12,945 bases of DNA from Candidatus Vampirococcus lugosii (GCF_018420025.1 NZ_JAEDAM010000035.1:1-12945), one strand, 5' to 3'; shown: positions 1 through 12,945, counted from the stretch's first letter. Notes: a model not told the origin generated them from the sequence alone. Program-made: numbers and translations.

Positions 1-286
1 ATATAGTTTTCGAATATGTTTACGATTCTTTTCTGTTAGTTTCTAATTTTTATGTTCTTTTTTTTGAGTACATGTTATATGTATATTCATATTTTGTTGT
101 TTTACACAAATAAAAATTTTATCTATTATATCTTTTTGTGTAAATAACACTAGTCTATATTACATTTCAGTATATTAGTAATATTAAGTTGAGCTGATTC
201 ATATAGAAAAATAAATTTTAATCAATTAAAAAAATATAAACTAAAATGGAAAAAAATACCTTGATATACAATTATTCGTAATATAA

Positions 287-1035
287 TCCAGAATACAAAT
301 AAAAAAGAACTTGAAAAAAATTAGAGAATATAGTGATAAATTATCTAAAATGAAAGAAACTAAAGATATTAAAGTTATATCTTTAGATGGTAAAGTTATA
401 AAATGAAGTTTTGATAATTTTAAAGATCAAAAAGCAATTCAAATATTTAGTGCTTTACTGAATTGAGAAATAATATTAGCTCATGAGGAAATAGATGAGA
501 AAACAAATGAAATTCCAATAGCTCAAAAATTTTTTGAAGAATTGTGATTAAAGTGAATAATTATTACTTTAGATGCTCTTCATTGTCAAAAAAAAACTTT
601 TAAAAAAATAATTGATTCCTGAAATGATGCAGTAATTCAATTAAAATGAAATCAAAAAAAATTAATGAAGAAATAGAGAAGAAACAAGAAATATTAAATT
701 TATATAAATATAAAACATTTATACTTTGACTATCTAAAGAATAGGAAAAATGTATAATAAATGTTATTGTTGTATATAGAAAAACAAAAGAAAAAAATAT
801 AAAAACAAAAAAATATGATTTTAAAACAGAAAAATCTTTTTATTTATCAACAAAATAGCTTACTGCAAAGGAATATTTAAAAATAATAAGATGACATTGG
901 GGAATTGAAAATAGAAATCATTATGTAAAAGATACATCTTTTTATGAAGATTCTTCTAGAATAAAAAAAAGTGCTGAAATAATATGATTACAAAATATTC
1001 ACTTTTTCTTTAAATGAACAGCCCTGATTTTATAA
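287..1035 (+). pseudogene. ISAs1-family (H-repeat-associated type) DDE transposase remnant: frameshifted, internal stops, internal deletion, N-terminal domain missing
   Basis: With TGA=Gly, frame 2 (350-673) reads MKETKDIKVISLDGKVIKGSFDNFKDQKAIQIFSALLNGEIILAHEEIDEKTNEIPIAQKFFEELGLKGIIITLDALHCQKKTFKKIIDSGNDAVIQLKGNQKKLMKK, then TAG at 674-676. This follows the ISAs1 core pattern IDGKtlR.S...DEKSNEI.aip.LL..L.lKGkiiT.DAmgCQk...GgDY..avKGNQ. Frame 1 (832-1032) reads KSFYLSTK*LTAKEYLKIIRGHWGIENRNHYVKDTSFYEDSSRIKKSAEIIGLQNI, with TAG at 856-858 and TAA at 1033-1035. This matches the C-terminal R.HW.IEN...ED motif. The interval 677-831 has stops in all frames and is shorter than the corresponding part of intact family members. 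Confidence 0.8.
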
Positions 1036-1138
1036 CACTAGAACTATTATCAAAAATGTTTTATCTAAACTCTCTATATCAAATTTAGTTATATCATGAC
1101 TATAATTTTATATTTGTCTATGCAAAACTCCTAAATAT

Positions 1139-1993
1139 TTAATATTTGTAAAAATGTGGAATAAGTAAAATTTTACTATCTAATAAATTATTTTTCATTT
1201 TAAATACAAAATTATTTACTTTTTCAGAAAATAATAAGTAGTTACTATAATCATAATATATTTCTGAATAAATAAATTTAACAATAATATCGTATTTATC
1301 AAAGTCATGATTATTTTTATTTTTTGAATTTGGATAAATAATTACTCCTATATTATTTATACTTCATATATATTCATTAAAATTTTCATTTTTTTTATAT
1401 TCTCATCAACAATTTTTTGAAAATATTTCAATAAAATTATCAATTTTTCAATCATAATTTATTCAAACATATATAGCTTCACATTGATATCAACTATATT
1501 TTAATCAATTTACTAATATATCAAAATTTTTAATTGAAATTTTTTCTGAATATCAAAATAAATCATCATAATATTGTTCCAAATATAATATTTTGGGTTC
1601 TAATAATAAATCTTTTTGCATCCATCAATAATCAAAACATATTAAATCATGTCAATTATTTGATGCAAAAACAATTAATCTTTTAGGAAAACAATATGTA
1701 AATTTGTTCATAGCTTCTATAATTTCATCTTCATACATATATTCAAAAACTACATCATAAAAAGATTGAACATATTCAATTTTATCAAATCCTGAAAAAA
1801 ACATTAGTTTGGGTTGATTATTTTGATCAAAATAAGTAGTAGGCAAAATATATCATCAATTACAAATTTTCATTAATTCTTTATATAAACTAGGTAATTT
1901 AAATCAAATTTCTTTTTCTTTATATTCTATATCTTCACAAGTGGCAGGAATATTTTTATTATTCCATCTCCAAAAAGAGTTTTTATTAATCAT
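1139..1993 (-). CDS. SMI1/KNR4 (SUKH-1) family immunity-like protein with an uncharacterised ~140-aa C-terminal extension (284 aa)
   Basis: I checked every minus-frame triplet from ATG (1993) to TAA (1139-1141); it is open under table 25 with many in-frame TGA. The track's 64-aa ORF 1652-1846 is an internal piece of it. N-terminal half: MINKNSFWRWNNKNIPATCEDIEYKEKEIGFKLPSLYKELMKICNGGYILP...LIVFASNNGHDLICFDYGWMQKDLLLEPKILYLEQ. This follows the SMI1_KNR4 pattern (ie..E..lg.kLP.dYkefl...NGG ... fa.dggGd.icfDy....ep.V..w.he). I do not recognise the C-terminal half (YSEKISIKNFDILVNGLKYSGYQCEAIYVGINYDGK...HFYKY). Confidence 0.7.
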
Positions 1994-2142
1994 ATTTAAA
2001 ATTATTTAATATTTAAAATTATTATTCAAAATAATTGACAAATAAACATTTATCTAAAAACTTTAAAAAAAACTAAAGTGTTCCATTTTCAAGACTAATT
2101 TATACTTTTTTTAAAGTAGTGACATTTAATATAATGTGGAAT

Positions 2143-2436
2143 CTAATCTTTATCAAAATCTTCTTCCCATTCTATTAGAACTTTTTCTAGAAAAGGTACA
2201 AAATTGCTATCTGCTAATATATTAATCTTTTCCAGTTTTTTAAAAACATCTTGTATTTCATTATGTGGAATAAATAATTCAAGAAAATTATTGGATTTTA
2301 CAAACTTCTGTTCCAAAATAGACCCATATTTAGGTAAACAATTTTCATTATAAAGGTAGCGAATTACAGATGAAAAGTGCCAAGCATCACTGTTATTTCC
2401 AAATTTTTTTATTAAATATTAAAATAATTTTTTCAT
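2143..2436 (-). pseudogene. Small hypothetical ORF interrupted by an in-frame TAA at codon 6 (possible decayed accessory or immunity-type gene)
   Basis: Minus strand reads ATG(2436) MKKLF, then TAA (2419-2421), then 91 open codons to TAG (2143-2145): YLIKKFGNNSDAWHFSSVIRYLYNENCLPKYGSILEQKFVKSNNFLELFIPHNEIQDVFKKLEKINILADSNFVPFLEKVLIEWEEDFDKD. There is no in-frame ATG or GTG after the stop, and the only TTG would give 57 aa. It contains no TGA codons. I recognise no family. Confidence 0.3.
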
Positions 2437-2673
2437 ATTATTGTAGGCATCTTTATAAAAGTATATAAGATTTTTATAAAAAAATGATTTAATTTGACTT
2501 TAAAAAAACTATTTTTTTCTTTTTTTTAATACTTTTTATAAAACCTTTTTATATTTTTTTCTATAATTTTACTGAAGGCCTGTAATAAAATTTTTACTAT
2601 TTTTAAGTAAAAATAAATATTTTTTATATTCTAAAATAGAATACTTGAATTTAAAAAATTTTTTATTTATATT

Positions 2674-2747
2674 CAGGGAGGCTAGGATTTGAACCTAGAG
2701 CACCAGCTTTGGAGAATAGTATGTTAAAACCAGTTAGACACCACCTT
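2674..2747 (-). tRNA. tRNA-Trp(CCA)-like element; imperfect cloverleaf, possibly a pseudo-tRNA or a recombination junction
   Basis: Reverse complement folds as AAGGTGG T GTCT AACTGGTTTTA ACAT A CTATT CTCCAAA GCTGG TGCT CTAGG TTCAAAT CCTAG CCTCCCT G. The T-arm is perfect (CTAGG/CCTAG, loop TTCAAAT). The anticodon loop is CU-CCA-AA. A1-U72 plus G73 is the bacterial tRNA-Trp identity pattern, and A14, G18G19 and A21 are in place. Against this: the acceptor stem pairs only 5/7, the D-stem has one mismatch plus one G-U with only one spacer nucleotide before it, and the anticodon stem has one mismatch plus two G-U. No CCA is encoded. Confidence 0.5.
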
Positions 2748-2953
2748 ACTTTATTTATAATAAATATAAATGTCTTTATATTATAAATATTTTTTTTAAG
2801 ATTTCAAATTTTTTTGGCTCTATTTTTTTGAGACAATACTTTTCTTTTAAACTGAAGGTTTATAAAGATATTAGAAGTCTCTTTATATAGTTATGTTTTA
2901 TGTTATATCAATATGCCATTCTTTTAAAAAGTTTGGCTTTAGTGTTTTTTCAT

Positions 2954-3361
2954 TTAGTAAAGGCATTTGTAATTCATATTTCAAAAAAGTTCTTGATTTA
3001 GTTCATATTCTAATTTTCAATAAATATTATTATCAATTTCAATTTCTACAATTTTGTAATTAAAATATTTTTCACATTTATTTTTATTTATTTTTTTGCT
3101 TATTTTATCTTGCAACACATTAACTGTATAATTTCTTTTAAATTTTTTAACTTCTTCCAATTTTTCTTGTGTTGATTTTACTAATAATCTTCTATTTTCT
3201 TTATCTTCATATTGTTTAGCGGGATTAAAACATAAAACATATTTTTTATCTTGTATTTCAAATTCTGATAATGTATGTTTATCAAATAAAGATTGTTGTA
3301 TTTTTTTATTATTTTCTGCTTTTTTCTTTAATTCTTTATGATTTAATCTAGAATAAAAAAA
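2954..3361 (-). pseudogene. IS4-superfamily (IS1634-like) DDE transposase internal fragment, no start codon
   Basis: Minus-frame triplets are open from just after TAG (3362-3364) to TAA (2954-2956), 135 aa: FFYSRLNHKELKKKAENNKKIQQSLFDKHTLSEFEIQDKKYVLCFNPAKQYEDKENRRLLVKSTQEKLEEVKKFKRNYTVNVLQDKISKKINKNKCEKYFNYKIVEIEIDNNIYGKLEYELNQELFGNMNYKCLY. It follows the conserved mid-region layout of IS1634-type transposases (r.vvc.NP.la..d...R..ll..te.eL.ki......r.......kigkvl.k.kv.KyF...i.d..f.y..n.e.i..e..ldG.yvl.T). The only in-frame ATG is 7 codons before the stop, and the flanks are non-coding. Confidence 0.55.
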
Positions 3362-3441
3362 CTATTTAAGACTTAAATAAACTTGATTTATTTAAGTTTT
3401 TTTTTATTATCATCGTTAATTTATATATAAAAATATAAAAT

Positions 3442-4956
3442 ATGAAAAAAGATAAATTAGCACTAATAATACTTGATTGAGTATGAATAAATGAAAAAAA
3501 ACCTGAACAAAATGCATTAATTCAAGCTAAAACACCGAATTTAGATAAATTGTGGGCATGAGAATACTCAAAAATTGAAGCTAGTTGAAAAAATGTATGA
3601 GTATCTGATGGTCAAATGTGAAATTCTGAAATATGACATATGACTATATGAGCTTGAAGAATTATAAAACAAATACCAACAAAAGTAAAAGATTTGTTGC
3701 AAACTTGAAAATTCAAAGATTTAAATGTTTACAAAGATTGATTAAAACATATACAAAAAAACAATAGCAATATACATATAATTCAATTATTTGGACCTTG
3801 ATGAGTTCATGCAAGTTATGAACATTTGTTATGATTTATAGATTTAATTCCATGAGATATATCTGTTTATTTACATCTTTTGTGAGATTGAAGAGATTTG
3901 GTGCCTAGATCTATGTTTTGATATATGAAAGATTTTTTGGAAATATTAGAAAACTATCCTAATATAAAAATATCTACAATTTGAGGAAGGTATTATGGGA
4001 TGGACAGAGATAATAATTGGGAAAGAATACAAAAATTTTATAAACAAATGATTTGAGATGATAATATAACTAATTTATCTATTTTGGATTATATAAAAAA
4101 ATCTTATGATAACGAAATTTTTGATGAATTTATAGAACCTACAAGTTTTACTTGAACAGAAAAAATTAAAGATTGAGATCTTGTATGTTTTTTAAATTTT
4201 AGATCTGATAGAGCAAAACAATTAACAAAAGTTTTTGTTGAGGAAAATTTCAATGAATTTGAAAGAAAAAATTTAAAAAATATAGAATTTATTTCTATGA
4301 CAAAATATTATTGAGAATATAAATGAAAATATTTTATAGAAGATGAAAATCTTGATAATATATTATGAGAAATACTTGAAAAAAATAATTTATCTCAATT
4401 ACATTTAGCTGAAACAGAAAAATTTGCTCATGTTACAAAATTTTTTAATTGATGAAAGGAAGTGAAATTTAAAAACGAAAAAGATATATTAGTAAAATCA
4501 CCAAAAGTAAAAAGTTATGATTTATGTCCTGAAATGTCAGCAGAATTAATATATGATGAGTTTGTCAAAAATATTAATAATTTTGACTTTTTTGTAATTA
4601 ATTTTGCAAATTGAGATATGGTTTGACATACTTGAGATATGCAAGCAACTATAAAAGCTATTGAAAAACTAGATTTCATATTATGAAATATTATTGATAT
4701 ATCTAATCAAAATTCTATAAAATTAATAATTACAGCAGATCATTGAAATTGTGAAGAAATGTGAACTGAAGAAAATAAAAAAACTTCTCATACAACAAAT
4801 CCAGTTCCTTTATGGTATATATCAAATTGAAAAACTCAAAAAATTAAAGAAAAATGATGACTAAAAGATATTGCTCCTACAATATTAGATATTTTGCAAA
4901 TTGAAATAGTATCTGAAATGGATTGAATATCTTTATTAAGTTGAGATGTTGAATAA
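3442..4956 (+). CDS. gpmI: 2,3-bisphosphoglycerate-independent phosphoglycerate mutase (504 aa)
   Basis: Frame 1 translated codon by codon with TGA=Gly, with no TAA/TAG until 4954-4956. Family motifs are present: [157 protein letters not shown]. I counted about 38 in-frame TGA codons, many at invariant glycines. Confidence 0.95.
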
Positions 4957-5004
4957 TTTAAAAATATTGTCAATATTAAACTCATCTTTGTAAACAAAAA
5001 ATAG

Positions 5005-5226
5005 TTAGTTTTGTGATGGCGAGTATTATTGTATTTTCTATTGAGATGCGGAGTAATAAGAATATTGATGAATATGCGACATAATAAAGAAACATTCATT
5101 TCAAGAAAGAATAGAAAAAAGTCTTTAAAAAAGTTTGTAAATCGATATAATTGTGTCAAACTTCATAAATGAATTGATAATAAAACACCATATGAAATTA
5201 TAGATGAGTTTTATCACTGAAAATAA
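5005..5226 (+). pseudogene. C-terminal remnant of an integrase-core (rve-type, IS3/IS481/IS30-like) transposase
   Basis: Frame 1 is open from after TAG (5002-5004) to TAA (5224-5226). The tail reads ...MRHNKETFISRKNRKKSLKKFVNRYNCVKLHKGIDNKTPYEIIDEFYHGK. This resembles the conserved end of rve transposases (f.s.eel...l..wv.yYN..R.H.slg..TP.e....). No catalytic core lies upstream because gpmI ends at 4956. The first in-frame ATG at 5068 would give only 52 aa. Confidence 0.4.
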
Positions 5227-5259
5227 AAAGTTGTAAACAATACTACCATTTCTTACAAA

Positions 5260-5757
5260 TTACCAATTTATATTTTCAATAGCTCATGACCAATTTGTAT
5301 TTTCTTCATCAATACCAGATAAAGTAAAATTAGATTGATAATGCCATTTATCACCGTCTTCATGAAGAATTTGTCAAGCTATTATATACTTTTTTCAGCT
5401 ATAAGCTATATGATAAATATCATCATCTCAAGGATTTACTGTATTTAATCTTTCTATTTGCAAAATATCTGATAATTTATTATCTCAACTTGAATTTTTT
5501 TCCATAAAAGATAAACTAAATCAAGTATAATATGTTCAACCAGTTCATTCTATTCCTCAAGTAAGATTTCAATTGATAAGATAAACATCAATTCAATCTG
5601 AAATTACTGATAAATCTGCTTTTACTCTAGCTTCTTTACTTTTTCATACAAACTGAGTTAATGCAATTCAAGATATTACTGATAATACTGCGATAATAGC
5701 TATTACCACTATCAACTCTACCATAGTAAATCATTTGTCTTTTAAATTAATTTTCAT
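5260..5757 (-). CDS. Type IV pilin / pseudopilin with prepilin-type N-terminal cleavage-methylation signal (165 aa)
   Basis: Full reverse complement translated under table 25: MKINLKDKG|FTMVELIVVIAIIAVLSVISGIALTQFVGKSKEARVKADLSVISDGIDVYLINGNLTGGIEGTGGTYYTGFSLSFMEKNSSGDNKLSDILQIERLNTVNPGDDDIYHIAYSGKKYIIAGQILHEDGDKWHYQSNFTLSGIDEENTNWSGAIENINW, with TAA at 5260-5262. It has the canonical class III signal: a short basic leader, Gly at -1, Phe+1 and Glu+5, then a hydrophobic helix. The -1 Gly is a TGA codon (plus-strand tca at 5731-5733). I counted 14 TGA codons. Confidence 0.85.
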
Positions 5758-5787
5758 TATTTTTTTTAAAAATTAAATTACATTTAA

Positions 5788-5816
5788 AGTATAAATAAAC
5801 AAATATCAAAAATCAA
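5788..5816 (-). promoter_or_regulatory. Candidate sigma70-type promoter of the downstream pilin gene (TTGATT - 17 nt - TATACT)
   Basis: The minus strand reads TTGATTtttgatatttgtttattTATACT, with -35 at plus 5811-5816 and -10 at plus 5788-5793, about 31 nt upstream of ATG 5757. The -35 is embedded in a 15-nt block, TTGATTTTTGATATT, that also occurs upstream of the other pilin gene. AT-rich background makes chance hexamer matches common. Confidence 0.4.
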
Positions 5817-5844
5817 CTTTATTTTAATAAAAATATTTTTCTAT

Positions 5845-5874
5845 AACAAAAAAACTCTCATTTAATGAGAGTTT
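5845..5874 (-). terminator. Rho-independent terminator after the upstream pilin gene
   Basis: Inverted repeat aaactctcat (5852-5861) / atgagagttt (5865-5874) with a 3-nt loop. On the minus strand the hairpin runs into a 7-T tract (AAACTCTCAT-TAA-ATGAGAGTTTTTTTG). It lies 26 nt downstream of the 5900-5902 stop. No T-run follows it on the plus strand. Confidence 0.65.
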
Positions 5875-5899
5875 CTTAAAAAGATTATTTATATTAATA

Positions 5900-6385
5900 T
5901 TACCAATCTATACCATTAACAACATTAGACCAATCATCTGCTGTCAAGTCTTCTCAAGATAAAGTGAAGTTATCATATTCAAGATACCATTCTCTGTCAC
6001 CATTATCATCTGGATCTAATTTTCAACCTATAACATATTTTTTAAGATCAGAAGATATATGATATGATTCACTACTATCAGGATGTACTGGCACAGTAGG
6101 AAAAATATCTTGTAATCAAGTATTATTATCCAAAAAACCTGTATTAAAAACTGTTCCACCAGTTCAATTTGTACCAGTAAGACCACTAACATTATCAGCT
6201 TGAGCTAAGTATGTATCAATTCATCTAGAAATTGTTCATATATCTGACTTAACTCTAGAATCTCTAGCTTGTCACACAAACTGAGTAAGTGCAAGACCTG
6301 CCACTACTGCTAATACTGCGATAATAGCTATTACTACTATCAATTCTACCATAGTAAATCACTTCTTATTCAAATTAATTCTCAT
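5900..6385 (-). CDS. Type IV pilin / pseudopilin, paralog of 5260-5757 (161 aa)
   Basis: Full reverse complement translated under table 25: MRINLNKKG|FTMVELIVVIAIIAVLAVVAGLALTQFVGQARDSRVKSDIGTISRGIDTYLAQADNVSGLTGTNGTGGTVFNTGFLDNNTGLQDIFPTVPVHPDSSESYHISSDLKKYVIGGKLDPDDNGDREWYLEYDNFTLSGEDLTADDWSNVVNGIDW, with TAA at 5900-5902. It has the same prepilin signal, and the -1 Gly is again TGA (plus-strand tca at 6359-6361). Confidence 0.85.
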
Positions 6386-6422
6386 TTTTCTTTTTTTTAT
6401 GATAAATAAAAAATGTATATAC

Positions 6423-6450
6423 ATTATACATATATAATATCAAAAATCAA
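6423..6450 (-). promoter_or_regulatory. Candidate sigma70-type promoter of the upstream pilin gene (TTGATT - 16 nt - TATAAT)
   Basis: The minus strand reads TTGATTtttgatattatatatgTATAAT, with -35 at plus 6445-6450 and -10 at plus 6423-6428, about 38 nt upstream of ATG 6385. It contains the same 15-nt TTGATTTTTGATATT block found upstream of the other pilin. Confidence 0.4.
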
Positions 6451-6749
6451 TAGTTTTTAATATTTTTTTGTAATAGACTATTTCAAAATATAGTAAAGAA
6501 AATAAAAAGACTTGATATTTTTTAAATTTTTGTTATATAAAAAATATGTTTGAAGTAAGTATAATTTAAAGTTTATTAATAATTAAATAACATTTCAATT
6601 CTAATTATTAATGTTGATAAATTTTTTGTTTATATAAATATTAAAGTATAATTAATATTAAAATAATTATAATATGGTTATTAAAAAATAAAATAAATAA
6701 TTTTTTAAATTATATATTTAAAGTATTATATATATAAATTATAGACAAA

Positions 6750-7712
6750 ATGCAAATTGTTGAAATTAAAGAAAATGAAAAATGACAAAGATTTGATAGA
6801 TTTTTGAGAAAATATTTAAAATATACTGATATAGCTCTCAAAAGTATATTTAAAGCTATAAGAAAGTGAGATATAAAAGTTAATTGAAGTAAATCTAAAG
6901 AAAGTTATATACTTAATATGTGAGACGAAATAGTTTTTAACTCATTTTTTTCAAGTCAAATAAAAGAAAGTCAAAAAGATAAAAATCATAAAATCAAAAA
7001 TATTAAAAAATCAAATATAGAAAAATTAATTTTATTTGAAGATGAATATTGGTTGGCAATAGATAAACCAAGTTGAATAGTAATTCATCCTTGAGACAAA
7101 AATTATAATACTATTACTTTAGTTGATTTATTACAAAATTATTTAAAATCAGATATTTGAACTTTTAAACCAATGTTTTGATATAGATTAGATAAAGATA
7201 CGAGTTGAATCATAATAGCAGGCAAAAAATATGAATCATTAAAATTATTAAATTTATTGATAAAAAATAGAAATACTAAAAAAAAATATATTGCTGTTGT
7301 GTTGTGAAAAATTAATAAAGAAGAAATTATTGATAATAATTTGGAAAAAGTATATAGCAAAAAACTCGGTAAAAATATAGTTATCTGTTCGTCAAATTGA
7401 CAAAGTGCAAAAACAATTGTAAAACCTATTAAACACAAATTTATAGAATGAATTTGATATATAACATTATTGGATATAGAAATAAAAACTGGTAGAATGC
7501 ATCAAATAAGAGTTCATCTCAAAAAAATAAAACATCCAGTTATTTGAGATTTAATTTATGGAAATAGTGAAAAAAATAAATTATTTTTAAATAAATTTTG
7601 AATAAATAGACAATTACTTCATAGTAGTGAATATTATTTTTATGATAGTATACAAAAAAAAAATATTAATATACACTCCCCTATTCCTCAAATAATAAAA
7701 AATATTTTTTAA
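6750..7712 (+). CDS. RluA-family (RluC/RluD-like) ribosomal large-subunit pseudouridine synthase with N-terminal S4-like domain (320 aa)
   Basis: Frame 3 translated line by line with TGA=Gly and open to TAA at 7710-7712. Motifs: GQRFDRFLRKYL...IFKAIRKGDIKVNG (S4-like), WLAIDKPSGIVIHPG, FGYRLDKDTSGIIIAGK (catalytic Asp motif HRLDkdTSG), IEIKTGRMHQIRVHL, VIGDLIYG, RQLLHSSEYYF. Confidence 0.9.
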
Positions 7713-7729
7713 TATAATATAATATTAAT

Positions 7730-8608
7730 ATGAAAGATAATATTTTGTTTGATTCTTACAAAGATATTTTGAATGATACAAGTTTAACAAGATTAGCTAC
7801 ACTTACAACAATTATTTATTCTATCATATTTGTAATATATGTAGTTTATCAAACATATTCTACAATTTCTGAAACAACAGACCAAAGTAAAACTATTGAT
7901 ATTGCTATTGAATATATTAGTTTTTTTATAAAAAATATAGAATTTGCAGGTTTTATTTTTATTTGAGCCATTATTTTAGCTATATGATATTTTTTGTTGC
8001 CACCAATAGCAGATTGAGCATTAATTAGTTATGTAAAAAATAAAAAACATGGTTGAAAAAAAGCATTATCAAAATGAATACTTAACTTTTTTCCAATGTT
8101 TGAATATAATGCAATGACAAGTGCAGTAAATTTTTTGGTATTTTTCATAGCAATAAGTAGAGCATATAGTATGTGAATTTTGAATAATATATTTATACAA
8201 ATTTTAATATGAATTTGGTGATTAGTTTTACTTTTTGCATCTATATTTTTTCATTATTCAAAATTTTTTATAATTCTCAAATGATTATGACCAATAGATG
8301 CAATGAAAGAAAGTATTTTTCTAACTTTTGAAAACTTTTTTTTGACAATAAAATTTGTATTTATAAGTTATTTACTTTATATTAGATTTATATTAAATAT
8401 ATTATTTGTAATATTTATACCTTTATTTTTGATTCGACTTAATGTTAAATTATGATTTTTTGATTCAAATATTACTAAATTTATGATTTATACATCATTT
8501 TGATTATTAATTATACTTACTGCATATATAAATTGAATTATAGAAGCATTTTTCATATCGTACTGGTACAAAGTTTTTGAAAAAACACAAGAAAACACAG
8601 AAGATTAA
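7730..8608 (+). CDS. Hypothetical polytopic integral membrane protein (292 aa), family not recognised
   Basis: The track ORF 7730-7966 continues through TGA codons in frame 2 to TAA at 8606-8608, checked line by line. The sequence has repeated long hydrophobic stretches: TTIIYSIIFVIYVVY, FAGFIFIGAIILAIGYFLL, AVNFLVFFIAI, ILIGIWGLVLLFASIFF, FVFISYLLYIRFILNILFVIFIPLFLI, MIYTSFGLLIILTAYINGIIEAFFI. It starts 17 nt after the pseudouridine synthase stop, suggesting co-transcription. Confidence 0.75.
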
Positions 8609-8717
8609 TTATTATATATTTAAAATAATTTACTAAAAATAAAAAACAGTTTGATATTGAAAAAAATGAGTAAATATTTATAATAGCACAAATTTTATGT
8701 ATTAACTTTTTATTGTT

Positions 8718-11009
8718 TTGGCAAAAAAAAAAACTAGTAAAAAATCAAAAAAAATTGTTATAAATAAATATAAAATAGCATTAATTTTATTAGCTATTTG
8801 TGTACTATTTTTCTTTACTGTTTTTATGGCATCAGATGGAACACCACTTTATCGAGTAATTGAATTTCCAACACATTTAATAATTTGAAAATATTGAAGT
8901 TTTCTATTTTTTTCTTTTACTACAATAATGGCTTTTTATATATTATATGATGAATCAATATTAAAGAAAAAAATATTTAAAAAACTTTTATTATTATTTA
9001 TTATATCTTGTGCTATAATTAGTTTTCCGATATTAGAAAGTAGTGGATCTTGATCTTTGGATCCTTATAATTTAGGTTGATGGACATGATATATTGCATT
9101 AATGATTATAAGTTTTCTTTTGTGACATCAAAAAGAACCTACTCAATATTTTACTTTGCTTATTTTTTTATGAGTTTTTATTCGATTATTATTTACTCTT
9201 AAAATTAAGTTTTCTGCACCACAAATTCAATTTGATATATGAGATTGAAGAAATACTAAAAAAAATGAAATTAAATGAAAAATTAAAGAAAAAAAGTCTA
9301 ATTTTTTGTCAAAGAAAGAAAATATATCAAAAGCATCTGATATTGTAAATGATATACCAAAAAAAGAAAATAAAGCAAAATTAATTTTTAAATCATTTTT
9401 TGAAAAAAAATCAAAAGATAATAATGAAAATAATGATATCAATAACGAAAATGATAATAATATTATAGAAAATAAAAAAGAAAATATTATAAATAAAAAT
9501 TTAAAACAAAATAATAATATACAAGAAACAAAACAAAATAATACACAAGAAGTAAAACAACAAAAATTATCTTTTCCTGAAGATAAACCTAGTTTTGATA
9601 TAAATATTTTGGATGATGAACAAGATCAATCTCAATATGAACTTGATGATAATTATTTGAGTGAAAAAGCAAATTCAATTATTAATAAATTGGATGAATT
9701 TATGATACCAGTTTCTTTTGAATGATATAATATATGACCTACAGTAATACAAATAAAAATTAAACCAGAAGCTTGAATAAAAATATCAAGAATAGAAAAC
9801 TTAAAAAAAGATTTAGCACTTTGATTAAAAACTAAATCTTTAAGAATTTTGGCTCCTATTCCTGGAACAGAATTTATTTGAATAGAAATACCAAATCCAA
9901 AACCTCAAATAGTTGCTCTTAGTCAAATACTTTGATCAAAAGAACTTGGAAATAATATGTCAAATCATTTAACTAATCTTTCATTATGAAAATGAATAGA
10001 TTGAAATATTGTTATTAAACCACTTGAAAAAATGCCACATCTTTTAGTTGCATGAGCTACTGGTAGTGGTAAATCTGTATGAGTTAATGATTTTATATTA
10101 TCATTATTATTTCAAAATAGTCCTAGTGAACTTAAATTTATAATGGTAGATCCAAAACAAGTAGAATTATGAATGTATGAATGAATACCTTATTTACTCT
10201 CCCCTATTATTACAGAACCTGAAAAGGCAGTAAAAATATTAAAACGAGCTGTTGAATTTATGAATTCTAGATATCAAAAACTTAAAAAAACTAAAGTAAG
10301 AAATATTGATCAATACAATCAAAAAGTACCAAAAGAAGAAAAAATGTATCGTTTAGTTATAATTATTGATGAATTAGCTGATCTTATGATGAGTAGTAAT
10401 AAAAAAGATACTGAAAATTATATAGCAAGAATAGCACAAATGGCTAGAGCTGTATGAATTCATCTAATAGTTGCTACACAAAGACCATCTGTTAATGTTA
10501 TTACTTGAGTTATTAAAGCTAATATTCCTACTAGAATAGCATTTGGTGTAGTTTCTGTAGTTGATAGTAGAACTATATTGGATAGTAAAGGTGCAGAAGA
10601 TTTGGTATGAAAATGAGATATGTTATATATGGATACTACTACCAAATTTCCTATGAGAATTCAAGCTCCATTTGTAGATACTGATGAAACTGAAAATGTA
10701 GTTTCAAGTATTAAAGAAAAATATATGCAATGACTTAAAGAAGAAGATATATATCATCCAGAAATTATAAATATATTGGAATCTAAACCTGAATATGCTT
10801 GATGATGAAATTGATCTGATTGATGAGATGATGAATTGATCGAACAAGCTATACAAATAATTACAGAAACAAGAAAAGCAAGTGCAACTATGTTACAAAG
10901 AAAATTAGGTATATGATTTGCAAGAGCTGCTAGACTTATGGATATTTTGGAAGAAAGATGAATAGTATGACCTGTAGATTGAGCTAAACCTAGAGAAATT
11001 TATGTATAA
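8718..11009 (+). CDS. ftsK: DNA translocase FtsK/SpoIIIE (about 763 aa; start codon uncertain)
   Basis: Frame 3 is open from 8706 to TAA at 11007-11009 under table 25 and joins the track fragments 9306-9725 and 10260-10457. Order of parts: N-terminal TM segments ([60 protein letters not shown]), an N/K/E-rich linker, then the motor domain. Motor motifs: [19 protein letters not shown] (Walker A), [25 protein letters not shown] (Walker B), [51 protein letters not shown]. The gamma domain is [30 protein letters not shown]. The proposed start is TTG at 8718 ([12 protein letters not shown]...). The first in-frame ATG (~8826) would remove the first TM helix. Confidence 0.9.
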
Positions 11010-11159
11010 TTCAAGATTTTAAATATTTAAATATTATAAAGACTTGAAAAGAATAAAAATTAAATTTTAGATAATTAAATTATAAATTTAAAAGACACGT
11101 CAATAAAATGAGTGGGTGAAAAATATTTAAAATTGCCAACACATTATATATATTTTTGT

Positions 11160-11187
11160 TTGATATTAATCAAAAAATATATATAAT
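11160..11187 (+). promoter_or_regulatory. Candidate promoter upstream of the ABC-F gene (TTGATA - 16 nt - TATAAT)
   Basis: ttgata at 11160-11165 and tataat at 11182-11187, about 26-38 nt upstream of the candidate ATGs. This is a hexamer match only in very AT-rich DNA, so it is weak. Confidence 0.25.
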
Positions 11188-11212
11188 GTAAATTAAATTA
11201 TTTATTTATTTA

Positions 11213-12685
11213 ATGAGTTTTGTTATGTCTGAAAAAAATAATGCGATACTTCGTTTTGATAATGTGTCATTTGATTACAATGATTGAGCTAATATAATTT
11301 TGAATGAAGCATCTTTTTCTGTTCGTGAAAATACGAAAATAACTATAATGTGACAAAATTGAGCTGGTAAATCTACCATATTTAAACTAATTACATGAGA
11401 ACTTAAACCTAAATCATGAAAAATAAATATAGTAAATTGAAATTCTGTTGCTATTGCTAGACAAGTAATTCCAAAAGAACAGTTTTTGTATACAGTAAGA
11501 GAATTTTTTGAACAAGTATTTGATGAAAAAGATTATCAATTAGATATGAAAATAAACAATATTCTCAAAGAAGTAAATCTAAAAACAAATTTAGATAAAA
11601 AAATAAAAGATTTTTCATGATGACAACAAGCAAGATTGCTTTTGGCTCAAGCTTTAATACAAGAACCAGATATATTACTTTTGGATGAACCTACAAATAA
11701 TTTAGATAAAGATTGAATATGAGATTTAATTTGATTTTTGCTTACATATTTAAAAACTGTTATAGTTATAAGTCATGATGCTGATTTTTTGAATATGTTT
11801 ACAGATTGAGTTTTATATTTAAATAAAAATGATAATACTGTAGAACAATATTGGTGAGATTATTATACAGTTTTGGAAGAAATAAAAAACCAAATAGAAA
11901 AAGAAAAATCTCAAAATGCAAGAGCAGAGAAAAAAATGAAAGATGCAAAAGAAAAAATTAATTATTTTGCAAATAAATGATGAAAAATGAGAAAAATAGC
12001 TAAAAAAATGAAAGAAGAAATAGAAGAAGTTGAAGATGAAAAAGTAATAGTGAGAAAAGATGATAAAACAATTCCTAATTTTGAAATTCCTTTTGATAAT
12101 TATAACGGTCCTATTGTTCAAATCAAAAATATAACTATAGTAAATAAAGAATGAGAATTACAAACTAATAAAGTGAAAATTCAGTTAAAGAAAAAAGAAA
12201 AACTTTTAATAAAATGACCAAACTGAATATGAAAATCTACTTTATTGAAAAGAATGGTAAATTGAAAAGATAATGATGCTAAAATTACAAGCGATGTAAA
12301 AATTTGATATTATAGTCAAGATTTTGATGCATTAGATATGAGTATGTCAGTTTGGGATTCTTTACATGAAATGAGTAATGAAGTTACTAATCAAGAAGTT
12401 TATGATACAGCTGGTAGATTTATGTTGGCTAAACTTATAAAGAGTAAAGTAGGAGCTTTATCAGAATGACAAAAATGACTTTTATGTTATGCAAGATTTA
12501 TAATACAAAGACCAGATTTATTAATTATGGATGAACCAAGTAATCATATTAATTTCCGTCATTTACCAGTAATAGCTGATGCATTAAATAATTATAAATG
12601 AGCTATGATAATGATAAGTCATGATGAAGAATTCTTGAGTAATATAAAAGATGTAGATGAATTAGATTTATCTTCGTTTTTGTAA
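11213..12685 (+). CDS. ABC-F family ATPase (tandem ABC domains, no TM domain; 490 aa from ATG 11213, alternative ATG 11225)
   Basis: Frame 2 translated line by line with TGA=Gly and open to TAA at 12683-12685. NBD1 motifs: MGQNGAGKST (Walker A), [12 protein letters not shown] (signature), [12 protein letters not shown] (Walker B), VISHD. A K/E-rich inter-domain linker follows ([44 protein letters not shown]). NBD2 motifs: [40 protein letters not shown]. Confidence 0.9.
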
Positions 12686-12720
12686 TTATACTAAAAACAT
12701 TTAATAATATTAGTATAATT
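12684..12720. other. 10-bp AT-rich inverted repeat bridging two convergent stop codons (possible weak bidirectional terminator)
   Basis: aattatacta (12684-12693) and tagtataatt (12711-12720) are exact reverse complements separated by 17 nt. They overlap the ABC-F TAA (12683-12685) and the IS630-like stop (12719-12721). The stem has a single G:C pair and there is no clear T-tract. Confidence 0.25.
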
Positions 12721-12945
12721 ATCTAATTATTTGAATTTTATTATTCAACAAACTAGATAATTTTTCCTTAAAAGTTAAATTAAATTCTCAGCAAATAGCC
12801 TTAATTATTTCTATAAAATCAAAAAAATTAGGAGTATATGTATTTTTTAATACTTTTTTTAAAAATTTCCAAACTCTTTCTATTAAATTTAAATTAGGTG
12901 AATATGGCGGTAAATAACACAGTTTTATTCACAGTTTTTCAGCTA
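12719..12945 (-). CDS. IS630/Tc1-mariner-family (DDE_3) transposase, C-terminal part only; 5' portion lies beyond the right window edge
   Basis: The minus frame is open from the window edge to TAA (12719-12721), checked triplet by triplet: AEKLGIKLCYLPPYSPNLNLIERVWKFLKKVLKNTYTPNFFDFIEIIKAICGEFNLTFKEKLSSLLNNKIQIIR. LPPYSPxLNxIERvW..lK is the hallmark IS630 motif around the last catalytic residue. It contains TGA-encoded Gly. Intact versus truncated cannot be judged from this window. Confidence 0.75.

Follow-up and report, generated by a model that had tools for sequence, protein, structure and literature searches.

Absconditabacteria (SR1), a lineage within the candidate phyla radiation (CPR), read UGA as glycine, a reassignment that goes back to Campbell 2013 and Rinke et al. 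2013 as these are cited in later papers (PMC8629427, PMC8080830). Shulgina and Eddy (2021, eLife, PMC8629427) predicted a further change in the same bacteria, with CGA as well as CGG specifying tryptophan. CPR bacteria are reported to have no tRNA(ACG) and to depend on tRNA(UCG) and tRNA(CCG) for CGA and CGG, and among the eight Absconditabacterales listed in that survey, all of which were assigned CGA=Trp by the program Codetta, seven have tRNA(UCG) and none has tRNA(ACG) (PMC8629427). Usage in these eight is 13–37 CGA and 35–76 UGG codons per 10,000 (PMC8629427). The same authors point out that only experiment can settle decoding and that ambiguous decoding is invisible to computation. The Arg-to-Trp reassignment has been restated in two 2026 papers, while a table-prediction tool from the same year offers a choice only among translation tables 11, 4, and 25. 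Here, we analyze the code of a whole chromosomal contig of 12,945 nucleotides from the predatory CPR bacterium Candidatus Vampirococcus lugosii (GCF_018420025.1, NZ_JAEDAM010000035.1, positions 1–12945), referred to below as the window, with emphasis on its UGA and CGA codons.

For V. lugosii, the genome paper already states that UGA encodes glycine, and its genes were called by Prodigal with table 25 (Moreira 2021, PMC8080830). The original prediction for the window, made from its sequence alone, likewise held that TGA is a sense codon for glycine throughout and that table 25 is the appropriate translation. Our analysis leads to the reading that this contig of an absconditabacterium uses UGA as glycine and, in addition, most probably uses the rare CGA codon as tryptophan, and we put the probability of this reading as a whole at about 0.9. 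Since the genome paper already gives both the code and table 25, the glycine part, although correct, is not new. What remains of the analysis is a single point: CGA very probably stands for tryptophan and is mistranslated by the public table-25 annotation.

Results

UGA is the main glycine codon

The window has a G+C content of 21.2% and looks almost devoid of genes when read with the standard code (table 11), which gives only 12 open reading frames (ORFs) of at least 80 residues, the longest of 148. Reading through TGA instead produces ORFs of 767, 505, 497, 324, and 296 residues, and the dense coding that had been foreseen for a glycine reading is indeed obtained: eight genes can be called (Table 1), which together occupy 69% of the contig. 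Their 2,986 codons include 163 TGA, 39 GGN, and 18 TGG, so that TGA makes up 163 of the 202 glycine codons (81%). In contrast to the 163 in-frame TGA, TAA and TAG interrupt none of the eight genes, each of which terminates with TAA. In the window as a whole, TAA and TAG together make up 5.9% of the trinucleotides, and the probability of 2,986 codons being free of both is ~3e-79. The notion that the TGA codons are real stops in a pseudogenised region, or sites of selenocysteine insertion or programmed read-through, has only the table-11 ORF track itself in its favor. It is at odds with these stop-free frames, with the presence of TGA at catalytic glycines of essential enzymes, and with full-length homologies that reach E-values of 1e-103. 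We therefore regard the standard-code reading as refuted, its residual probability being vanishingly small.

The positions of the TGA codons within conserved motifs were found exactly where they had been proposed. The Walker A motif of FtsK reads GCA TGA GCT ACT GGT AGT GGT AAA TCT, with TGA at 10053-10055, and that of the ABC-F ATPase reads ATG TGA CAA AAT TGA GCT GGT AAA TCT, with TGA at 11351-11353 and 11360-11362. The ABC signature is TTT TCA TGA TGA CAA, with the two TGA codons at 11618-11623, and in the ABC-F protein TGA lies inside both Walker A and both signature motifs. In each of the two type IV pilin-like proteins, the glycine at position −1 of the prepilin cleavage site is a minus-strand TGA (plus-strand TCA at 5731-5733 and 6359-6361), followed in both by TTT ACT ATG GTA GAR TTG, or F-T-M-V-E-L. 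The phosphoglycerate mutase GpmI carries GQMgNSEIgH (3610), FFNgg (4441), and, with tryptophan encoded by TGG, DRDNNW (4003), and the RluA-family pseudouridine synthase carries DKDTSg (7191).

The identity of the residue was assessed by masking TGA (and CGA) as X and aligning the GpmI, FtsK, ABC-F, and RluA-family proteins to homologues in the Protein Data Bank (PDB) from standard-code organisms. Glycine stands opposite TGA in 104 of 181 aligned positions and tryptophan in none, against a glycine background of 7.6% in the same alignments. When each protein is compared with a single PDB target, glycine is found at 54 of 99 positions (binomial p = 5e-34). The enrichment is seen in GpmI (21/37 against 1ejj and 23/37 against 5vpu), in FtsK (17/28 against 2iut, the Pseudomonas aeruginosa and Escherichia coli FtsK matches being at ~1e-100), and in the RluA-family protein, where 5 of 11 positions match glycine in RluD, those in DKDTSg and hpG among them. 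Profile scores agree with the alignments, as all seven Pfam domains score better with glycine than with tryptophan at TGA, by ~249 bits in total: Metalloenzyme (271.8 versus 202.9 bits), iPGM_N (202 versus 172.5), FtsK_SpoIIIE (186.4 versus 161.7), FtsK_gamma (88 versus 67.1), FtsK_alpha (87.8 versus 71), ABC_tran (159.4 versus 95.8), and PseudoU_synth_2 (89.5 versus 64.8). In codon alignments with orthologues, the 264 partners of the window's TGA codons comprise 134 TGA, 62 GGN, and no TGG. The TGG codons of GpmI, including the one in DRDNNW, stand opposite tryptophan in the PDB homologues, and the partners of TGG in orthologues are TGG, CGA, or CGG.

These data bear directly on the Mycoplasma-type code (table 4), in which UGA is tryptophan and which is the choice of automatic gene callers. 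Its traces are common in databases: among the 120 FtsK sequences most closely related to that of the window in a large protein collection, 75 have tryptophan at conserved glycine columns encoded by UGA, and in the Logan version of the membrane protein from the window (P0121/L206, SRR13241709), each of the 13 TGA codons is rendered as tryptophan. The Logan contig of this run falls wholly within the window. Against table 4 stand the absence of any TGA opposite tryptophan among the 181 PDB-aligned positions, a loss of 17–69 bits per Pfam domain, an implied and implausible tryptophan content of ~6%, and the retention of TGG at conserved tryptophan positions, which had been put forward as the argument against this code. 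The alignments and profile scores refute it, and we give it next to no chance. Given the PDB alignments, the Pfam scores, the orthologue codons, and the retained TGG, sequence comparison establishes that UGA is glycine on this contig and excludes both table 4 and the stop readings; in V. lugosii, UGA is the main glycine codon rather than a stop, and UGG is still tryptophan. It follows that a table-11 or a table-4 annotation of the contig would be wrong, as was claimed at the outset.

The lineage had been guessed, correctly, as Gracilibacteria or Absconditabacteria, groups placed in the GTDB class JAEDAM01. The FtsK of the window is 100% identical to that of V. lugosii, which belongs to the Absconditabacteria/SR1 (PMC8080830), and the deposited NCBI sequence (P0001) is 100% identical to the table-25 translation from the window. 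Among the 120 closest FtsK relatives, those with a named source are nearly all Absconditabacteria, Absconditabacterales, SR1, or Gracilibacteria. The proposal of table 25 thus stands for UGA as glycine, UGG as tryptophan, and UAA and UAG as stops. It probably does not hold for four CGA codons, which behave as tryptophan rather than arginine.

CGA codons probably encode tryptophan

Arginine in the eight genes is encoded mainly by AGA (56 codons), with four CGT, one AGG, and no CGC or CGG. CGA occurs in frame four times (~13 per 10,000 codons), three times in FtsK and once in a conserved membrane protein (Table 1). The most telling of these sites is FtsK residue 510 (10245-10247), which aligns with the tryptophan of ALRWSVAEMERRY in the P. 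aeruginosa FtsK structure and of ALRWCVNEMERRY in that of E. coli. Across 83 FtsK-holding loci, obtained by scanning contigs with FtsK and mostly from standard-code bacteria, the codon at this site is TGG in 77, AAA in one, and CGA in five, the latter being confined to the window, L001/L002, L003, and L004 (SR1). The scan, which did not bring up V. lugosii and served as an outgroup panel for this site, is probably skewed to standard-code bacteria by TGA breaking tblastn matches in recoded genomes. L004 comes from GCA_007115995.1 (SKJI01), one of the genomes scored by Codetta (PMC8629427). At the protein level, the column for residue 510 among the 120 closest homologues is split evenly between arginine and tryptophan (R60/W60), under table-4 and table-25 translations alike, and the FtsK_SpoIIIE score rises by 4.1 bits when CGA is translated as W instead of R.

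Tryptophan is also present in two further CGA columns. For the CGA at 9183-9185, the FtsK protein column is W46/R23/A23/Y18, and the membrane protein column for the CGA at 8435-8437 is Y78/R13/W11/F6. The exchange also runs in the reverse direction, since TGG codons of the window in the membrane protein and the RluA-family gene stand opposite CGA in L085, and the membrane protein columns at the window's two TGG codons are W70/R39 and R56/W54, with no lysine. L085 (GCA_030429145.1, 40% GC) has CGA at all three conserved tryptophan columns where the window has TGG, which suggests a heavier use of CGA as tryptophan in this relative of higher GC content. One CGG of L004 stands opposite a codon that is TGG in the window as well as in L001 and L003. 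Three of the loci used (L003, L005, and L006) bear the record title 'uncultured Candidatus Peribacteria'; their FtsK genes hold 18–31 sense TGA each, and the label seems to be wrong for what look like code-25 lineages.

The alternative closest to existing annotation is that table 25 applies unchanged, CGA being arginine and the FtsK and other sites being genuine, tolerated substitutions of tryptophan by arginine. This would fit the deposited FtsK (P0001), which has R at all three of its CGA sites, as well as the location of one of the four codons (8853-8855) in a variable column and the lysine that the standard-code bacterium Tumebacillus has at the FtsK tryptophan site. Genuine arginines, however, would be expected as AGA (56 codons versus four CGA) and would be expected to exchange with AGA, CGT, or lysine codons. 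This is what the window's AGA codons do: of their 120 partners in orthologues, 116 are arginine or lysine codons and none is TGG or CGA. The 16 partners of the CGA codons, by contrast, include no arginine or lysine codon, five TGG, and three CGA. Fisher tests on these counts are to be read qualitatively only, because the partners are phylogenetically non-independent and significance is overstated. In addition, the columns that mix R and W contain no K, two of the CGA codons map to a hydrophobic membrane segment or an aromatic column, and the Codetta assignment of CGA to tryptophan covers all eight Absconditabacterales, including the genome of L004. Taken together, these data make an arginine reading of CGA unlikely.

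A second alternative is that CGA is in transition, being either decoded ambiguously as arginine and tryptophan or effectively unassigned and tolerated only at permissive sites. The rarity of the codon (4 of 2,986) is in line with this, and ambiguity of this kind is undetectable computationally by the account of Shulgina and Eddy. On the other hand, four separate lineages with code 25 have kept CGA where FtsK has its near-invariant tryptophan, and because this residue is functionally constrained, poor or half-arginine decoding is hard to reconcile with the use of the codon there. We consider such a transitional state somewhat less likely still than unchanged table 25.

Several observations weigh against this reading of the V. 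lugosii code. The case for CGA as tryptophan consists of four codons, of which three are informative, and the window has no in-frame CGG; the statistics on partner codons are limited as described above. At default thresholds, tRNA scanning of the window gave no gene, and the eight annotated genes do not include one for a release factor. The genome table of Shulgina and Eddy does not list V. lugosii, proteomic confirmation of CGA=Trp was not found in the searched literature, and ambiguous CGA decoding stays compatible with sequence comparison. With these points taken into account, the four CGA codons still most probably encode tryptophan rather than arginine, and we think it highly likely that the V. 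lugosii code departs from the standard one at least twice, at UGA and at CGA. Table 25 is accordingly the best available translation and a nearly correct one, with four sites written as arginine that are likely tryptophan.

Decoding machinery

By analogy with the lineage, UGA would be read by a tRNA-Gly with the anticodon UCA, and release factor 2 would have been lost, leaving release factor 1 to terminate at UAA and UAG only. Strong A+T mutation pressure, reflected in the 21% GC content, may have driven GGN glycine codons to TGA. For CGA, the lineage suggests a tRNA(UCG) that has tryptophan identity elements, is charged with tryptophan, and takes the place of the arginine tRNA. For the V. lugosii assembly, 38 tRNAs have been reported. 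A scan of the window with Rfam gave no family at gathering score, and the tRNAs detected in related code-25 loci were limited to Ser(UGA), Leu(GAG), Arg(CCU), and His(GUG), with no UCA, UCG, CCG, or CCA anticodon.

One sequence in the window (2674-2747) resembles tRNA-Trp(CCA): its T arm is perfect, its anticodon loop is CUCCAAA, and it has A1:U72 and G73. Four of its stem pairs are mismatched, however, and CCA is not encoded. Against the Rfam tRNA model it reaches 18.5 bits, short of the gathering score of 29 bits. ARAGORN reports it only when the threshold is relaxed (-ps80), and its fold is no better than that of shuffled sequence (z = +0.85). A metagenome scan with this sequence returned canonical tRNA-Trp genes that have only the T arm and anticodon loop in common with it, and none of the matches lay on clearly recoded contigs. 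We do not regard it as a working tRNA; it is probably the relic of a decayed tRNA-Trp.

Gene content of the window

Table 1. Genes, CGA codons, and other features of the window, numbered from its first nucleotide
Feature	Position	Strand	Observations
DDE_Tnp_1_assoc and DDE_Tnp_1 fragments (ISAs1/IS4-type)	154-1035	+	Three frames; transposase debris at left end
SUKH-1 (SMI1/KNR4) family protein, 284 aa	1139..1993	-	13 TGA; PF09346 E=6.3e-16; ORF open only with TGA read-through
tRNA-Trp(CCA)-like sequence	2674-2747	-	45% G+C island in 21% GC DNA, among degenerate ORFs (2143-3361)
gpmI, 2,3-bisphosphoglycerate-independent phosphoglycerate mutase, 504 aa	3442..4956	+	38 TGA, 3 TGG, TAA end; PDB 1ejj E=1.7e-103 over residues 1-499
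Type IV pilin-like protein 1, 165 aa	5260..5757	-	14 TGA; Pfam N_methyl E=1.7e-7
Type IV pilin-like protein 2, 161 aa	5900..6385	-	8 TGA; Pfam N_methyl E=3.2e-8
RluA-family pseudouridine synthase, 320 aa	6750..7712	+	15 TGA; PF00849 E=3.4e-25; PDB RluD E=1.3e-20, also RluC match
Conserved multi-pass membrane protein, 292 aa	7730..8608	+	13 TGA, 2 TGG, 1 CGA
CGA, membrane protein	8435..8437	+	TGG in Absconditicoccus praedator; TAC in L085; TTA in L084
ftsK, DNA translocase, 763 aa	8718..11009	+	TTG start; 38 TGA, 1 TGG, 3 CGA; PDB 2iut E=1.1e-100
CGA, FtsK N-terminal region (PLY[CGA]VIEF)	8853..8855	+	Variable column: CTA, GTA, ACT, CAG; no Arg/Lys partner; uninformative
CGA, FtsK transmembrane segment (LGVFI[CGA]LLF)	9183..9185	+	TGG in L001, L003; TTT in L006; GCA in L004
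CGA, FtsK residue 510 (KILK[CGA]AVEFMNSRY)	10245..10247	+	Near-invariant Trp; opposite W in PDB homologues
ABC-F family ATPase, 490 aa	11213..12685	+	24 TGA; best PDB matches YheS, PoxtA, YbiT, Uup, EttA
DDE_3 (IS630-type) transposase C-terminus	12719-12943	-	Cut by contig end; right end

The two pilin-like genes are tandem paralogues with a common 5' region of 181 nt that is 79% identical (repeat D1), and both proteins end in ...IxW, the final codon being TGG. In the window, as in each of the three relatives that were inspected (L083, L084, and L085; 10001-~10900), the membrane protein gene directly follows the RluA-family gene. The protein has 110 homologues, all source-named ones being labelled Absconditabacteria or Gracilibacteria, and a few of them match PF25231. 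In FtsK, a linker at ~9210-9600 (+) is an Asn/Lys-rich low-complexity region without glycine, and the longest table-11 ORF of the window (9279-9725) falls in this region. In annotations, SUKH-1 proteins frequently figure as immunity proteins of polymorphic toxin systems; the gene found here has no toxin gene next to it. Transposase sequences occupy both ends of the contig, and a near-identical V. lugosii IS630-type transposase is on record. The assembly probably breaks at these ends because of repeated insertion sequence copies and transposase debris.

Discussion

The assignment of UGA to glycine is textbook knowledge for this lineage and has already been applied to the contig, and nothing changes there. 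Of practical concern is that public protein collections are full of table-4 mistranslations like those seen among the FtsK relatives, by which homology searches and structure prediction are degraded. The CGA codons raise a related problem. To our knowledge, no NCBI or other standard translation table gives CGA or CGG as tryptophan in bacteria. Because this assignment is covered neither by such a table nor by any of the prediction tools consulted, which choose among tables 11, 4, and 25, absconditabacterial proteomes, that of V. lugosii among them, systematically show arginine at tryptophan positions. If CGA is tryptophan in V. lugosii, the GenBank table-25 proteome has arginine in place of tryptophan at four sites of this contig, including the near-invariant tryptophan of FtsK, and the Arg-to-Trp reassignment of the Absconditabacterales, still unverified, extends to the most A+T-rich member described. 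The window would then represent a new organism-level case of a published prediction that has yet to be put to experiment. The reassignment of CGA is among the first sense-codon reassignments proposed in bacteria, and the literature searched yielded no experimental confirmation of it. Absconditicoccus praedator, which has TGG at the CGA site of the membrane protein, is a close cultured relative of V. lugosii.

Compared with known codes, the window has in common with table 4 of Mycoplasma and Spiroplasma that UGA has a sense meaning, that the bacterial genome is reduced and rich in A+T, and that loss of release factor 2 is the presumed enabling step, but the residue is glycine and not tryptophan. 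With table 25 of SR1 and Gracilibacteria it agrees as follows: UGA is glycine, UGG is tryptophan, UAA and UAG are stops, the host is a low-GC absconditabacterium, and the deposited annotation uses this table. Table 25 leaves all other codons standard and keeps CGA and CGG as arginine, whereas CGA in the window behaves as tryptophan, in a case of four codons of which three are informative. A CGN-box arginine codon has also been taken over by tryptophan in the low-GC genomes of Anaerococcus and Onthovivens (Bacillota). There, however, only CGG is reassigned and CGA remains arginine through tRNA(ICG), while in CPR bacteria there is no tRNA(ACG) and CGA is affected. A further parallel is the code predicted for the Absconditabacterales, in which CGA and CGG are both tryptophan. 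The window differs from it in its GC content of 21%, below the 0.26–0.38 published for the reassigned clades, and in having no in-frame CGG. It resembles this code in combining glycine at UGA with CGA at conserved tryptophan positions, in its dominant arginine codon AGA, in the depletion of the CGN box at low GC, and in its codon usage, as ~13 CGA and ~60 UGG per 10,000 both fall inside the published ranges.

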